Shown: one piece after another, positions 385 to 63,385 of the stretch
How the letters are laid out: each line of letters opens with the position of its first letter
Numbering within the stretch: position 1 is the stretch's first letter
Assembly (NCBI GenBank): GCA_947573405.1
Contig: CANPFW010000001.1
Span: forward strand, 20,322 to 84,321
Source: an uncultured Clostridia bacterium
GTDB taxonomy: Bacteria > Bacillota > Clostridia > Oscillospirales > CAG-272
Direction of reading: 5' to 3'
Length of the DNA: 64,000 nt
The notes under the pieces: model-generated
Database searches by the model: none
What the model was told of the DNA's origin: nothing
What the model saw: only the letters and a program-made list of their open reading frames with translations
Translations under genes and position numbers: made by a program

Positions 385-705
385 TTCCCCAGCAAAGGGA
401 ACTATCGCGTAACACATAACTTAAAAGGCTCTCCCCATCAAAGGGAGGCGATGCGCTGCAAACCTCGTCCTACTTCATAGCCTCCCCCCAGCAAAGGGAG
501 GTGGGTTTTGCGTAGCAAAACTCGGAGGGATTGTTTCGGCAGATTGTCGATTTATAGAATATCTGAAATGATAGCAGAGACAATCCCCCCGTCTCGCCTA
601 CGGCGATCCACCCCCCCTTTGCACAAGGGGGGCTTTCATAGGGGAGGCTGCGCTGAGCCATTACCTTAGGATCCGCTACGCGGCTCCGGCACAAAGGAGG
701 CTATA
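385..705. repeat. Nested-palindrome repeat family, copy E1 (core in B orientation) plus extra hairpin modules
   Basis: Core inverted repeats ggagggattgt 524-534 and acaatcccccc 580-590. H2 hairpins gttttgc-gta-gcaaaac and gtctcgcc-tac-ggcgatc. H1 hairpins cctccccccagcaaagggagg 481-501 and ccccccctttgcacaagggggg 611-632. Additional H1-like hairpins at 385-401 and 431-447. Confidence 0.85.
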
Positions 706-778
706 AAGTAAGGCGAGGATTGTGCCACATCTACATCCGGAAGTCTTTTGGAGTTGGATGCAGCGTAAAGTTGCTTCT

Positions 779-1438
779 TCACAGCAGAGACTGCCCGTTG
801 ATCTGCAGCCGGAATCGCAGCCCCAGCTTTTCCGCAGCCTTTCGGCAAAGCACCATACGTCCCAGAAAAATTTCAAAATAGTCCATTACACTGCCGTACT
901 CTGTATCAATCGTCAGCATCAGTGTGATTTCCGTTTTGTCCGCATTGATTTCCAGTACGGAATCCGTTACTGAATAGTTCACCCGGTCATGTATGTCAAA
1001 ATTTGCCACATCCGTATTGCGTACCCGACTGCGCCGCACGTCTGATTTGTCAGCCAAAATCAATGCAGCCGATATGTCATTGATCGGAACGCCTGTTCCT
1101 TCATCGTGATTGCCGATTGCCGATACGACTGTTGCCACATCCTGCGGATCCATATCCATACTCCGTAAAATACGAAACGCCATAACTGCGCCGCTTTGTG
1201 AGTGGTCTACACGGTTTACCAGATTTCCGATATCGTGAAGATATGCCGCGATCTGTGCCAACTCCACAGCATGAGAGTCTGCTTCCATTTCCGTTAGAAT
1301 ATAACTGGAAATCTGACTTACTTTTGTTACATGGGCAAAGCTGTGCTCCGTATAGCCGAGCGCCGCCAGTGCTTCATCTGCCTTTTTTATATAGGTGCGG
1401 ATTTCTTCGTTTTCCCGCAGCTGTGCATAAGTTATCAT
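779..1438 (-). CDS. HD-domain phosphohydrolase
   Basis: AAYLHDIGN and GNHDEG motifs. Start moved to the Met at 1438 (MITYAQL...), 31 nt after the miaA stop. The longer ORF-track version overlaps miaA. Confidence 0.8.
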   Translation of the reverse strand: MITYAQLRENEEIRTYIKKADEALAALGYTEHSFAHVTKVSQISSYILTEMEADSHAVELAQIAAYLHDIGNLVNRVDHSQSGAVMAFRILRSMDMDPQDVATVVSAIGNHDEGTGVPINDISAALILADKSDVRRSRVRNTDVANFDIHDRVNYSVTDSVLEINADKTEITLMLTIDTEYGSVMDYFEIFLGRMVLCRKAAEKLGLRFRLQINGQSLL

Positions 1439-1469
1439 ACCAATTACCCTCGTTTTATCATATGCAATA

Positions 1470-2441
1470 TTATCCGTTTCCGAAAAAATGCTGATTATGC
1501 AGCTTTTTGCAAACTTCCTCCGCAAGCTGCTCTGTGGGGCGCATTTGCCCATGCGCATCCACGGAAACAACAATCGCTTCGGTATACCGCTTGAACCAGG
1601 TGATCTGCCGTTTGGCATATCTGCGGGTGTTGCGGCAAATTTCATCTACTGTCTGCTCCAAAGTGCATTCTCCGGCGAAATACGGCAGAAATTCCTTATA
1701 TCCAATCGCCTGAAAAGCGGGTGCGTCTTCCCGCAGCAGCCCCGCTTCATACAGTCCGGTTACTTCCTCCAACAGTCCTGCCTGCATCATTTCAGCAACC
1801 CGTTTGTCAATCCGCTCATATAAAAGCTGACGGGACTGAAAGGACAGCACAATTCGCACGCAGTCGTATTTCGCATCTGCTGTCGGGGAAAGTCCGTCAA
1901 ACTGGGATTTCGGGATTCCGGTGGTTTCATAAATTTCCAAAGCCCGGATCACCCGGCGCACATTGTTGGGATGAATGGCCGCTGCAGATTCCGGATCCAC
2001 TGCGGCAAGCAGCCCGTGAAGGGCGTCGGCGCCCTGTTCCCGGGCAACTGCCTCAAAGCATGCCCGCACTGCGGGATTTTTTGTGCTGTCGGATAACCCG
2101 TCCCCATATAAAACAGCATCCAGATACAGTCCCGTTCCGCCGCAGAATACCGGCAGCCGATCCCGGGCAAGGATATCTTCCACAATCGGCGCTGTCATTT
2201 CAGCAAAGTCCGCACAGGAAAAATCTGTCGTAGGCGGTACTGCGGCAATCATGTGATGGGGGATATTTTCCATTTCAGACTCTGTCGGTGCAGCGGTGCC
2301 GATGGTCATTCCCGTATAAATCTGCATGGAATCGTTGGATATTACTTCACCGTCAAGACGGCGGGCAAGGGATATGGCCAGCGCTGTTTTTCCCGATGCG
2401 GTGGGGCCTGCAACCGAAAGGATTTTCTTTTTTTGTTCCAT
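1470..2441 (-). CDS. miaA: tRNA dimethylallyltransferase
   Basis: P-loop AGPTASGKT, followed by SNDSMQIYTGMTIGTAAPT, typical of MiaA. Full length at 323 aa. Confidence 0.95.
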   Translation of the reverse strand: MEQKKKILSVAGPTASGKTALAISLARRLDGEVISNDSMQIYTGMTIGTAAPTESEMENIPHHMIAAVPPTTDFSCADFAEMTAPIVEDILARDRLPVFCGGTGLYLDAVLYGDGLSDSTKNPAVRACFEAVAREQGADALHGLLAAVDPESAAAIHPNNVRRVIRALEIYETTGIPKSQFDGLSPTADAKYDCVRIVLSFQSRQLLYERIDKRVAEMMQAGLLEEVTGLYEAGLLREDAPAFQAIGYKEFLPYFAGECTLEQTVDEICRNTRRYAKRQITWFKRYTEAIVVSVDAHGQMRPTEQLAEEVCKKLHNQHFFGNG

Positions 2442-61804: not shown

Positions 61805-61805
61805 G

Positions 61806-63032
61806 TTAAAGTCTCTCTTCCTGATATTTTACTGTGCCGCCCAGCATCTCGAAATCTTTCCAGAACGCCGGGTAGGATTTAGAGGCAGACTGTGCGCCAT
61901 GAATGGTCACGTCTCCGCAGATTACGGAAGCGATTGCAGCGGACATGGCAATCCGGTGATCTCCGGTGGCGTCAATCGTGCCGCCATGAAGCGCGCTGCC
62001 CCCCTGGATAATCAGTCCGTCCTCCAACTCCTGCACTGTGCCACCCATTGTACGGATCAGCGCCGCGGAGGTAGCAAGGCGATCGCTTTCCTTCAGCCGT
62101 ACCCGGGCAGCATTGCAGATTGTAGTTTCTCCTGGAGTGCCCAGCGCTGCAACGGAAAGAATCAGCACAAGATCCGGTGTGTTTGCAATGTCAATTTTGC
62201 AGTTTTTCTCTGTGCGCATTTTTTCAAGAATATCGCAGATTGCTTTATCTCCCTGCAGGGAATCGCTTTCCAGTCCGGTTACCTCTACAGGAGCTCCCAG
62301 AAATTTGCACACCTTCCAGAATGCCGCCGCCGACCAGTCTCCTTCTGCTTTGATCACCCCGGGAGAGCGGTATGTTTGTCCGCCGGGGATTTCATATCCT
62401 GTGTCGGTGCGCCGGATTTCAATTCCGAAGGCTTTCAGCGCCCACAGGGTCATATCTACGTAAGAAGCGGATTCCAAGTTTCCGGTTATCGTAAGGGTGC
62501 TGTCTCCCTCGCAAAGCGGCAGTGCAAACAGCAGTCCGGAAATAAACTGGGAGGACACGTCGCCCCGGAGGGTGAAATTGCCAGGCTGGAGTTTTCCCCG
62601 TACCGACAGGGGATTGGAGCCCTGCTCTGAAAGGGTACAGCCGCAGCGGATCAGTTCTTCCCGCAGAGGGGAGAGGGGGCGGTCCGGCAGTCTGCCGTGG
62701 AGCGCAATGTCCGCATGCACGCCCCGGGCACACAGGATTGGGATGAGAAACCGCAGGGTGGATCCGGATTCACCGCAGTCTATTGCAACCGTATCCTGTG
62801 CGGCGTTTTTATGCGGCGTTACTGTAAAGGCGCCGTCATGATACGAGATATCAGCAAAAGCAGATTCCAGACAGTGCCAGGTAGCTTCGATATCCTCAGA
62901 GAGAACGCTGCATCTTACAGTAGTCGATGTTTCGGCAAGGGCGGCGCAGATCAGCAGTCGGTGCGCCATAGATTTTGAAGTCACTGCCGGGACCGTGCCA
63001 TGCAGGTTTTTGCCGTTTACAGTAACAGTCAT
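61806..63032 (-). CDS. aroA: 3-phosphoshikimate 1-carboxyvinyltransferase (EPSP synthase)
   Basis: KSMAHRLLICAAL, LKESDRL and GDHRIAMS motifs. Confidence 0.95.
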   Translation of the reverse strand: MTVTVNGKNLHGTVPAVTSKSMAHRLLICAALAETSTTVRCSVLSEDIEATWHCLESAFADISYHDGAFTVTPHKNAAQDTVAIDCGESGSTLRFLIPILCARGVHADIALHGRLPDRPLSPLREELIRCGCTLSEQGSNPLSVRGKLQPGNFTLRGDVSSQFISGLLFALPLCEGDSTLTITGNLESASYVDMTLWALKAFGIEIRRTDTGYEIPGGQTYRSPGVIKAEGDWSAAAFWKVCKFLGAPVEVTGLESDSLQGDKAICDILEKMRTEKNCKIDIANTPDLVLILSVAALGTPGETTICNAARVRLKESDRLATSAALIRTMGGTVQELEDGLIIQGGSALHGGTIDATGDHRIAMSAAIASVICGDVTIHGAQSASKSYPAFWKDFEMLGGTVKYQEERL

Positions 63033-63089
63033 AATGTTGGGTTCCTTTCGTGTATGATGTATCTCACTAAAGCAAACTTTATAGGGCTC

Positions 63090-63385
63090 CGCCTAACTTC
63101 ATCAGCCTCCCCCCAGTAAAGGGAGGTGGGTTTTGCGTAGCAAAACTCGGAGGGATTGTTTATCTATCATTTTAAATAATCTGCAGATCGACACTCTGCC
63201 TAAACAATCCCCCCGACACGATCGCTACGCTTGGCCGTGCCACCCCCCTTTGCACAAGGGGGGCTGATGGAGAAAGATGCGCGACAGTTCCCTTTGCTGG
63301 GGGCCTATATGTGTATGATGCTGCTTGGTATCCCCTTATGGAGCTATGCAGTGAATCCGCACATAGAGACTTTGGGACGGCGGAG
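63090..63385. repeat. Repeat family copy E12 (A orientation) between aroB and aroA
   Basis: The left arm is nearly identical to that of E1 (cctccccccagtaaagggaggtgggttttgcgtagcaaaactc). Inverted repeats 63149-63159 and 63204-63214. H1 cccccctttgcacaagggggg. Decayed modules extend to 63385. Confidence 0.85.

Follow-up and report, generated by a model that had tools for sequence, protein, structure and literature searches.

The stretch of DNA considered here, 64,000 nt of contig CANPFW010000001.1 (assembly GCA_947573405.1, an uncultured Clostridia bacterium; hereafter the window, meaning the whole stretch), raises the question which kind of genetic element the nested palindromes are that crowd its intergenic gaps, and by which route they spread. 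A first-pass annotation of the sequence had described them as hairpins (H1, H2 and a third type, H3) around a short core bounded by 10-bp terminal inverted repeats (TIRs), and had likened them both to MITEs (miniature inverted-repeat transposable elements) and to REP (repetitive extragenic palindromic) sequences and bacterial interspersed mosaic elements (BIMEs). A composite, REP/BIME-like family of repeated intergenic elements is supported by the present analysis, and we place it among the REP/BIME repeats as a new family, rather than among MITEs with boundary repeats of 10 bp.

In the window, the repeat GAGGGATTGT has 33 matches at no more than one mismatch, against 4.1 expected, and none of 100 shuffles reaches this number; the 15-mer of H1, CCCTTTGCACAAGGG, is matched 23 times at up to two mismatches, with 0.17 expected. 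A covariance model of the half-unit described below finds 26 matches at E<1e-3, every one within the repeat tracts (minus strand for left arms, plus strand for right arms); at this threshold, positions 640-27,500 contain none. Merging of the module matches results in 12 intergenic tracts containing 13 cores, 26 half-units and about 23 H1 hairpins, which together occupy 3.15 kb or more (4.9% of the window, or 7.8% if only its part between 27.5 and 64 kb is counted). The earlier statement that tracts occupy nearly every gap from 27.5 kb on is borne out: by heuristic gene calls, the family is present in 11 of the 12 intergenic gaps of at least 100 bp between 27.4 and 64 kb, and in none of the 12 such gaps between 2.8 and 26 kb. 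All 13 cores listed previously are present (at coordinates one base higher than given) and they occur in both orientations (9 plus, 4 minus). The cores are 46-66 nt long including the repeats; the one at 47181 has a degenerate right repeat, and those at 40496 and 57967 are cut to 46 and 58 nt.

No described RNA family matches the repeats at the Rfam gathering score, two tRNAs being the only families recognised in the window, and a permissive scan of 53.4-58.3 kb returned merely terminator-like sub-threshold matches. Searching with the full element by BLAST gave no match among plasmids and one weak 47-bp match among phages, in an unannotated faecal contig. It had also been supposed that translations of the arrays populate protein databases; in a limited test, five open reading frames (ORFs) of the arrays had no exact match in a collection of 15 billion proteins. 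The genes of the window form an anaerobic Firmicute set (phosphotransferase system (PTS) components, indolepyruvate ferredoxin oxidoreductase, FtsH, TilS, TrmD/RimM and an aromatic amino-acid operon). A cyanobacterial origin, with HIP1 or SDR repeats, was considered and ruled out, GCGATCGC occurring once in the window and the PTS and indolepyruvate ferredoxin oxidoreductase genes being present.

The anatomy was established on an enlarged set, the window plus related loci, which holds 164 oriented cores, 279 distinct half-units and 162 typed dimers. The repeating block is a half-unit of about 60 nt which, read outward from the core, begins with ACAATCCC(Y)C, continues through H2 and then H1, and usually ends in a T-run. 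The cores are bounded by the inner repeats GRGGGATTGT and ACAATCCCYC, the latter opening the half-unit: the 10-bp TIR does exist, and it is the inner end of a palindrome running on through H2 and H1, rather than the end of an element. The order H1-H2-TIR-core-TIR-H2-H1 holds, with H2 and H1 on both sides in 117 of the 148 cores that have enough flank and partial arms in the rest, bar two chance matches. A TIR-bounded core was never genuinely found without H2/H1 arms, which does not support regarding it as a short mobile element of its own. Half-units without a core are found directly after unique sequence or gene ends, in the window at 53452, 53520 and 58079.

A full heterodimer of about 190 nt consists of two unlike half-units set head-to-head around a conserved 45-nt spacer (54-66 nt with its complementary ends in the 162 dimers). 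The core consensus of the 164 oriented cores is GGGATTGT-taTaCTATCATTTTGcATaATCTaCAAATCGGCAGTaTATgCAgACAATCCC; conservation of its blocks CTATCATTTTG and AAATCGRCAGT extends to the 13 window copies, an unbiased set, and inspection of the consensus reveals a weak similarity between one half of the core and the inverted other half. The arm on the ATCATTTT side (A arm) has the extension TCA or CCA, an H2 head AGTC or ACCC, the H1 stem GCTCCC and a strong T-run; the B/C arm has TCC or CCC, a head CGTC, CGAC or CGAG, a tail CCA and the H1 stem CCTCCC or CCCCCC. Among the 162 dimers, 116 are of type AB, 23 BA, 16 BB and 7 AA, hence 139 (86%) are heterodimers.

H2 has an essentially perfect stem of 4-9 bp whose sequence differs between copies, in more than 60 variants; about 1,490 stem pairs include no G-T pair and 13 mismatches. 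Its loop is mostly TAC (67) or TGC (48), its head AGTC (79 of 279), CGTC (41), ACCC (41), CGAC (33), CGAG (33) or CGCC (22), and its tail CCA or ACA, with CCAC in 99 of 279. H1 is a G+C-rich hairpin, SCTCCC-TTTGCACAA-GGGAGS, with a stem of 7-9 bp and a 5-nt loop; at least four T within the next 8 nt follow it in 85 of 122 A arms (70%) and 52 of 157 B arms (33%). Further H1 units, often with only the 3' half of an H2, follow one another every 45 bp or so on the outer sides of the dimer and always point outward. H3 (GGATCCGCTACGCGGCTCC), said earlier to be appended to the arrays, is instead nested within the H1 loop, where it occurs in both orientations; REP-like itself, it has a relative in one variant of H2.

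Of the cells in 49 units aligned without gaps, 92.9% are paired, whereas shuffles reach 78.4% and slid partners 44-54%; the corresponding covariation scores are 0.389, 0.145 and 0.04-0.08. Both sides have changed in 10 of 16 pairs (117 cells, a cell being a sequence and not an independent event); H2 contributes 72 such changes, 19 unpaired cells beyond the conserved 13-29 mismatch and no single-side (G-U) changes. These counts show that pairing is kept, not how often it was restored. Long-range pairing between the left and right arms was considered as the selected structure and rejected: the arms are mostly of different subtypes, so left-right pairing is mismatched, whereas each local stem is perfect, and it is therefore the local hairpins that are maintained as conserved structures. 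Folds of whole elements are more stable than those of shuffled sequences (z = -3.1 and -4.6). It should also be noted that position 9 of the inner repeat (ACAATCCC[T/C]C) is the same base as the variable one in the 5' arm of H1 (C[T/C]CCC) in 246 of 279 units, which could reflect descent of subfamilies or an alternative helix, formed by the inner repeat with the 3' arm of H1 and competing with H1.

Two variants were seen beside this common plan. A second core subfamily, GGGATTGTATAACYRACGATATGAAGTATTTGCAAAATGAAAGNNNNTGCTGACAATTCC, occurs in the related genome CASTST01 (L057 2096, L059 2797 and L068 270/4982/7523, L plus a number labelling the related stretches compared with the window) and has in common with the main core only the GCAAAATGA-AG block and the repeats. 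In the left arm of the element at L039 ~2045, a 10-nt unit, GCTACGCAAC, is tandemly expanded at least four times in the H2 loop, resembling microsatellite growth. Poor fits were obtained when the core was compared by hand with the consensus of IHF, cre, CodY and DnaA box sites.

Distribution and change between strains

Scanning one genome per GTDB species for the pattern yielded at least 86 stretches. Among the matches listed, nearly all come from three species represented by metagenome-assembled genomes (MAGs), CASTST01 and CATLAS01 (both 'uncultured Eubacteriales') and CANTEM01 ('uncultured Clostridia'), and two are arm-less chance matches, in Ilyomonas and Lachnospira. Shared genes are about 90% identical to those of the window in CASTST01 and about 83% in CANTEM01. 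Metagenomes yielded 79 stretches, concentrated in few assemblies, and viral contigs two matches, of which one is a real element (L099, a 5.3-kb contig) and the other due to chance. Among the matches listed, the family is thus restricted to one lineage and common to at least four species-level genomes.

Judged by the nearest long ORFs (heuristic gene calls), 42 dimers lie in convergent and 8 in divergent gaps, and the co-directional ones divide by core orientation into 25 and 20: the family favours the 3' ends of genes and has no preference for an orientation of the core. Several arrays are located within the apparent aromatic amino-acid operon, 14-70 bp from the neighbouring genes, and one stands in a divergent gap upstream of the promoter of the tilS operon. 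A generic scan of 46.5-64 kb found 42 terminator-like sites where 20.1 are expected, many of them H1 units.

The first-pass annotation had allowed for the copies being strain-invariant sequence; instead, the arrays are polymorphic between strains and between species. The whole dimer of tract 5 is inverted in place in CASTST01 (L013): about 262 bp (35450-35711 of the window) are turned around at 89.5% identity between flanks which are collinear and 91-93% identical. In strains at 97-99% identity (L089, L093 and L094), the same tract differs by an H2 cassette, CGACTCGCTTACAGCGAGCC versus CGACACGGCAAAGCCGTGCC, with identical flanks, and by the gain or loss of an H1 unit of 45 bp, which lies between direct repeats of 21 bp. 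Strains at 97-99.7% identity further show a core with a 10-bp duplication and an H3-bearing H1 replaced by a plain hybrid H1; the H3-bearing portion of tract 4 is replaced in L093, the stretch 40664-40766 next to tract 6 is absent as a 115-bp indel in L089, L093 and L094. The left part of tract 8 is mostly absent in L008. Core 10, at 53.7 kb, is identical in 64 of 65 positions to its orthologue in L008, and both flanking H2/H1 sets are other variants. The gap orthologous to tract 1 (L024) contains a different dimer, with the breakpoint exactly in an H1 loop; a simple inversion was considered here and rejected, the differing arms implying that the element was replaced, not flipped.

Larger differences concern entire arrays. 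One of 595 bp separates two genes which, in another species, are almost contiguous, and one of about 300 bp, located between a terminator and the next ribosome-binding site, varies by presence and absence between species. Neither of two filled/empty site pairs has a recognisable target-site duplication; the comparison is of whole arrays, whose boundaries are not sharp. In CANTEM01 (L022), the gap between the genes of 3-dehydroquinate synthase and EPSP (5-enolpyruvylshikimate-3-phosphate) synthase holds only one H1b and a hybrid H1 whose 5' arm and loop belong to one type and whose 3' arm belongs to a second; such a hybrid would be the expected product if a dimer was deleted between its two H1 units.

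Between strains, arrays accumulate 3.6-8.5 indel events per kb and the remaining sequence 0.1-0.2, a rate 30-60 times higher in the arrays. Mismatches amount to 1.2-3.1% in arrays and 0.4-0.6% elsewhere, and since the comparison set is mostly coding, substitution in the arrays appears close to the neutral rate. Strains at 99.2-100% identity are collinear across 53.8-64 kb, their arrays being without large rearrangement.

Explanations for the spread of the family

On balance, we consider it probable, with considerable room for doubt, that the arrays represent a REP/BIME-type repeat family that is specific to one lineage, an uncultured Clostridiales bacterium of the gut, and that spreads by enzymatic copying and affects its host at the transcript level. 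By analogy with REPs and REPINs (REP doublets forming hairpins), units would be copied by a trans-acting enzyme, which would recognise the folded single-stranded hairpin by its head, loop and tail and not by the sequence of its stem. We infer such structure-specific copying of single-stranded DNA from two facts: head, loop and tail are fixed while the stems drift and yet remain perfect, and both-side changes far exceed broken pairs despite the nearly neutral evolution of the arrays. Once inserted, arrays are remodelled by processes driven by homology and hairpins, and the changes observed comprise replacement of single H2 cassettes whose flanks are conserved, gain and loss of 45-bp H1 units, inversion of the centre of the palindrome in place and deletion down to a single hybrid H1. 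Judging from anatomy and position, an array transcribed at the 3' end of a gene would fold into a stack of hairpins, whose distal outward H1 with its U-run may act as a partial intrinsic terminator and protector of the 3' end, in both directions, much as REPs do in operons of E. coli.

Several points weigh against this reading. One concerns the enzyme, which was searched for in about 1.17 Mb of fragments centred on elements (the window plus related loci), not in whole genomes: no REP-associated tyrosine transposase (RAYT), no other HUH/Y1 protein and no multi-copy transposase is found there, with one distant RAYT as query. In particular, phmmer with the E. coli RayT gave nothing at E<=1 among 2,464 ORFs, and no ORF with an HUH...Y motif has a Pfam Y1_Tnp domain. 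When the ORFs of at least 110 aa from the window and 86 loci were clustered, no transposase-like multi-copy family emerged, the multi-copy clusters consisting of ABC ATPases, LeuA-like proteins, hydrogenase, MatE, leucine-rich-repeat (LRR)/dockerin and MBOAT proteins only. The fit of the motif to the CGTC class of REPs is loose, as 41 of 279 heads read exactly CGTC, the stems are 4-9 bp instead of 8-9 bp and the loops mostly of 3 nt instead of the 4-5 nt of CGTC REPs, and the A arms are fully paired (AGTC...GACA) where an unpaired head and tail would be expected. Moreover, conservation of the spacer equals that of the arms, a feature not called for by REP models. As to the effect on the host, efficient termination would do harm in the aromatic amino-acid operon, inside which arrays lie 14-70 bp from genes. 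Finally, a 23-kb island of the window is free of copies, so that current mobility may be low or absent.

The main rival dispenses with a dedicated enzyme altogether. Terminator hairpins of the host would have been amplified by template switching at hairpins, slipped strands and ectopic gene conversion, the dimer with its core being merely the most successful product of recombination; we judge this unlikely, though worth serious consideration. All changes observed are indeed of this kind, be it cassette replacement, 45-bp units with 21-bp direct repeats or inversion in place; hybrid H1 hairpins sit at deletion junctions, and the indel rates of the arrays are 30-60 times those of the flanks. The failure to find a transposase in the fragments (the published CGTC REPs are likewise without a known one) and the absence of copies from an island that looks recently acquired would also follow. 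Difficult to place under recombination alone are the arrays of 300-595 bp at naive sites, between genes abutting in a relative, and it leaves unexplained why a specific 45-nt spacer and a fixed head, loop and tail recur in more than 160 copies across four species-level lineages.

A bolder version of the REP/BIME reading, which to us seems doubtful, assumes an unrecognised REP/REPIN system of Firmicutes. An enzyme acting on single-stranded DNA, not recognisable as a RAYT, would copy half-units and swap single H2 cassettes that lie between two fixed docking sequences, ACAATCCCYC and the H1 stem, and the 45-nt spacer would be its site of binding or assembly. If true, this would account for hypervariable and nevertheless perfect stems without wobble pairs, for clean swaps at 97-99% identity and for the fixed head, loop and tail.

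The classical MITE, a deletion derivative of an insertion sequence (IS) mobilised in trans by a DDE transposase that binds the GAGGGATTGT repeats, is improbable. An inverted repeat of 10-14 bp around a short non-coding core, the weak similarity of the inverted core halves, the high copy number and the intergenic location speak for it. The repeat is, however, internal, with family sequence beyond it on both sides in the 117 of 148 cores mentioned above and no genuine arm-less copy, and no target-site duplication is recognisable at the two filled/empty site pairs, where whole arrays without sharp boundaries are compared. In the window and the related loci, solo inner repeats run into unique DNA with no partner repeat at the distance of an IS, and the ~1.17 Mb of fragments hold neither a transposase nor an autonomous IS with ends of the family. 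The whole dimer could still be seen as a MITE with composite ends of about 60 bp, which would be hard to tell from a REPIN.

Readings of the core as a promoter or a switch find little support. In the first, the element is a structured RNA gene or a cis-regulatory RNA whose core holds a promoter, while the arms (ACAAUCCCYC-H2-H1-U run) are each either transcribed as a short RNA or a terminator that can be switched. The hairpin units do all point outward from the core and end in T-runs, the stability of the whole-element folds agrees with structured RNA, and the covariation of position 9 with the 5' arm of H1 would fit a helix competing with a terminator. There is also a single suggestive case: at L067 ~5210, TTGCAT of a truncated core precedes TATAAT by exactly 17 bp, and the ribosome-binding site and ATG of a gene come next, so that a fragment of the element may have been recruited as the -35 of its promoter. 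Hand alignments of the cores to a sigma-70 promoter had given TTGCAx-17-TAnnnn or an extended -10, and this candidate was rejected: the generic scan of 46.5-64 kb places no promoter-like (sigma-70-type) match within a core, the putative -10 positions are the least conserved of the core, the would-be spacer block AAATCGGCAG is among the most conserved parts, and the core is oriented without bias to the neighbouring genes (25 versus 20). H2 stems free of G-U intermediates would be unusual under selection at the RNA level, Rfam has no matching family, and the arrays change at about the neutral rate; altogether, we regard an RNA gene as quite improbable. Least credible of all is an inverton, with the core flipped between its repeats by a site-specific recombinase: cores do occur in both orientations, 23 of 162 are inverted relative to their A and B arms, and one orthologous element is inverted between relatives, but that inversion spans the whole ~260-bp palindrome and not the core alone, repeats about 45 bp apart are in general very short for synapsis by a recombinase, the core has no promoter consensus, no invertase or recombinase was seen near the copies inspected, and no core is flipped among strains at 98-100% identity.

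The tracts of the window and their surroundings

Tracts and cores of the repeat family in the window (positions in the window; strand gives the orientation of the core)
Feature	Position	Strand	Location	Composition
Tract 1	386..705			H1b units, full head-to-head dimer, H1 with nested H3
Core 1	525..589	-		65 nt with inverted repeats
Tract 2	27511..27662			left half-unit and core, without right arm
Core 2	27598..27662	-		
Tract 3	28680..28955			two H1b units, full dimer, right H1 with nested H3
Core 3	28815..28878	+		
Tract 4	31255..31528		convergent genes	full dimer, H1 with H3, two further H1-like hairpins
Core 4	31308..31373	+		
Tract 5	35420..35800		divergent genes	full dimer, stacked H1b units
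Core 5	35511..35575	+		
Tract 6	40367..40715		convergent genes	dimer with truncated core, H1/H3 units
Core 6	40496..40541	-		truncated, 46 nt
Tract 7	47102..47495			two full dimers side by side
Core 7	47181..47241	+		right repeat degenerate (ACAATTCCCC)
Core 8	47378..47442	+		
Tract 8	50590..51030			H3 unit, four tandem H1 units (44-46 bp period), full dimer, H1b units
Core 9	50828..50891	-		core inverted relative to its A and B arms
Tract 9	53404..53840			18-bp bidirectional terminator, two solo half-units, full dimer with H3 in right H1
Core 10	53722..53786	+		
Tract 10	56216..56480			H1 units, full dimer; right arm without H2
Core 11	56317..56382	+		
Tract 11	57846..58195		aromatic amino-acid operon	H3 unit, full dimer, solo half-unit with H3, H1
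Core 12	57967..58024	+		58 nt
Tract 12	63100..63375		gap between 3-dehydroquinate synthase and EPSP synthase genes	full dimer, H1b and H3-like units
Core 13	63150..63213	+		

At tract 2 the repeat has become part of a gene: a DHH-family gene (27608-28561, minus strand) terminates within core 2, and its last ~17 codons and stop come from the repeat element; in strain L089 this gene is called as two pieces of 263 and 51 aa. The terminator at the start of tract 9 (53404-53442), directly after a GH31 gene, is a perfect 18-bp hairpin, AAAAAGGAGAGGGAAAATCCCTCTCCTTTTT, unrelated to the repeat family; it has sub-threshold Rfam matches to STnc390 and SpF25, which are terminator-like small RNA models.

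The repeat-free region (2800-26000, about 23 kb) carries RHS cassettes, a tRNA-Met and a tRNA-Leu (10603-10797), PTS EI, a fructose-type EIIABC and a 1477-aa helicase-like protein. Homology to CASTST01 ends at 2794, a search with the PTS protein of the region gave no record on other contigs, and the region is probably a recently acquired island. The 1477-aa protein (17243-21676, plus strand) has weak matches only, to helicase C-terminal regions and to the anti-phage proteins Hhe, ProA and PLuB (E 1e-8 to 1e-6), by which it may be a defence gene. Between 2400 and 10300, an RHS/YD-repeat protein (3670-6027) is followed by stretches of low GC content (36-45%) with internal repeats (4910-5209 versus 7564-7863 at 86%, 5689-5790 versus 9220-9321, and a 55-nt AT-rich motif present three times), an arrangement resembling that of an RHS toxin gene accompanied by orphan cassettes for C-termini and immunity. 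A related MAG (L014, 1470-2345, plus strand) encodes a protein that combines a type I dockerin domain with leucine-rich repeats of the BspA type, which suggests a cellulosome-related lifestyle in the lineage.

Relation to known repeat systems

REP and BIME repeats have been studied almost only in proteobacteria, their mode of spread is debated, and the CGTC class is without a known enzyme. The present family does not overturn current ideas; it is a useful natural system, being dense and modular, with arrays at nearly every operon boundary, changes measurable at 98-99% identity and many metagenomic strains of the host already available. The copying of hairpin repeats, the upkeep of perfect pairing and the tuning of termination inside operons of Gram-positive gut anaerobes thereby become approachable. 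On the practical side, the arrays break assemblies and create spurious ORFs, and they could serve as markers for strain typing. Nothing specific on such elements in Clostridia was found in the literature, and the family is undescribed in the sources searched.

REPs have an unpaired GTAG or CGTC head, CGTC units having a CCA tail, and the stem sequence differs by subset (Di Nocera, De Gregorio & Rocco 2013, PMC3733652). In the CGTC class, head-to-head dimers predominate and often are heterodimers, REP dimers have conserved spacers of 20-100 bp whose ends may be complementary, and units or dimers can be embedded in other palindromes; unidirectional and convergent gaps are preferred, and no transposase is known (PMC3733652). 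The family described here resembles these dimers throughout in architecture: its extragenic hairpins have variable yet complementary stems, with a tetranucleotide head by the spacer and a CCA tail that fit the REP motif loosely in B/C arms and not in A arms; they form head-to-head (hetero)dimers around a conserved spacer with complementary ends and are embedded in other palindromes; and unidirectional and convergent gaps are preferred, with no dedicated transposase known. Mapped onto REP architecture, H2 is the counterpart of the REP, the TIR plus core that of the head-to-head spacer with complementary ends and H1 that of the host palindrome. There are also differences. Only about 15% of the heads are exact CGTC (38% are CGWS and 28% AGTC), stems and loops are shorter (4-9 bp and mostly 3 nt versus 8-9 bp and 4-5 nt), G-T pairs are absent, and each unit is joined to a second, terminator-like hairpin, H1. 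The host belongs to the Clostridiales, whereas the survey found CGTC REPs, of which dRS3 is CGTC-1, in Proteobacteria, Chlorobi, Bacteroidetes, Spirochaetes and Thermotogae and does not mention Firmicutes (PMC3733652).

With Rho-independent terminators, H1 has in common the G+C-rich stem of 7-9 bp, the 5-nt loop and the T-run, and generic scans flag it as such. In contrast to ordinary terminators, its loops and stems are homologous across hundreds of sites, which implies that H1 units were copied and did not evolve independently; many T-runs of the B type are weak, and arrays are found in a divergent promoter region and inside operons as well.

The pneumococcal BOX elements and the Correia/dRS3 mosaics of Neisseria are modular hairpin repeats of variable copy number, in which families are interleaved and which alter termination or transcript stability. 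The likeness lies in the modular intergenic arrays and is one of architecture. BOX differs by its directional A-Bn-C order and is not a palindrome, and Correia elements differ by 26-bp terminal repeats and TA duplications, neither of which is seen in the family here.

Nearest to the dimers, finally, are the BIME-1/RIP elements of E. coli and the REPINs, which likewise consist of two inverted REPs around a conserved head-to-head linker and build mosaic arrays of hairpin types and linkers. BIME-1/RIP elements, too, lie at 3' ends of genes and within operons, where they are thought to be partial terminators and stabilisers of mRNA; for a REP in an E. coli operon, partial termination and stabilisation of the upstream mRNA have been described (bioRxiv 10.64898/2026.03.23.713779). 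The head of E. coli REPs is GTAG, and the RAYT gene linked to them is rayT, RAYTs being defined by the inverted REPs that flank them, whereas the fragments searched here, with one distant query, hold no RAYT. The L linker of BIME-1/RIP binds IHF, a protein which is not known from Firmicutes. With its order of REP, L linker and REP, BIME-1/RIP is, by analogy of arrangement and position, the closest functional counterpart of a dimer with a conserved linker such as the one that recurs throughout the arrays of the window.

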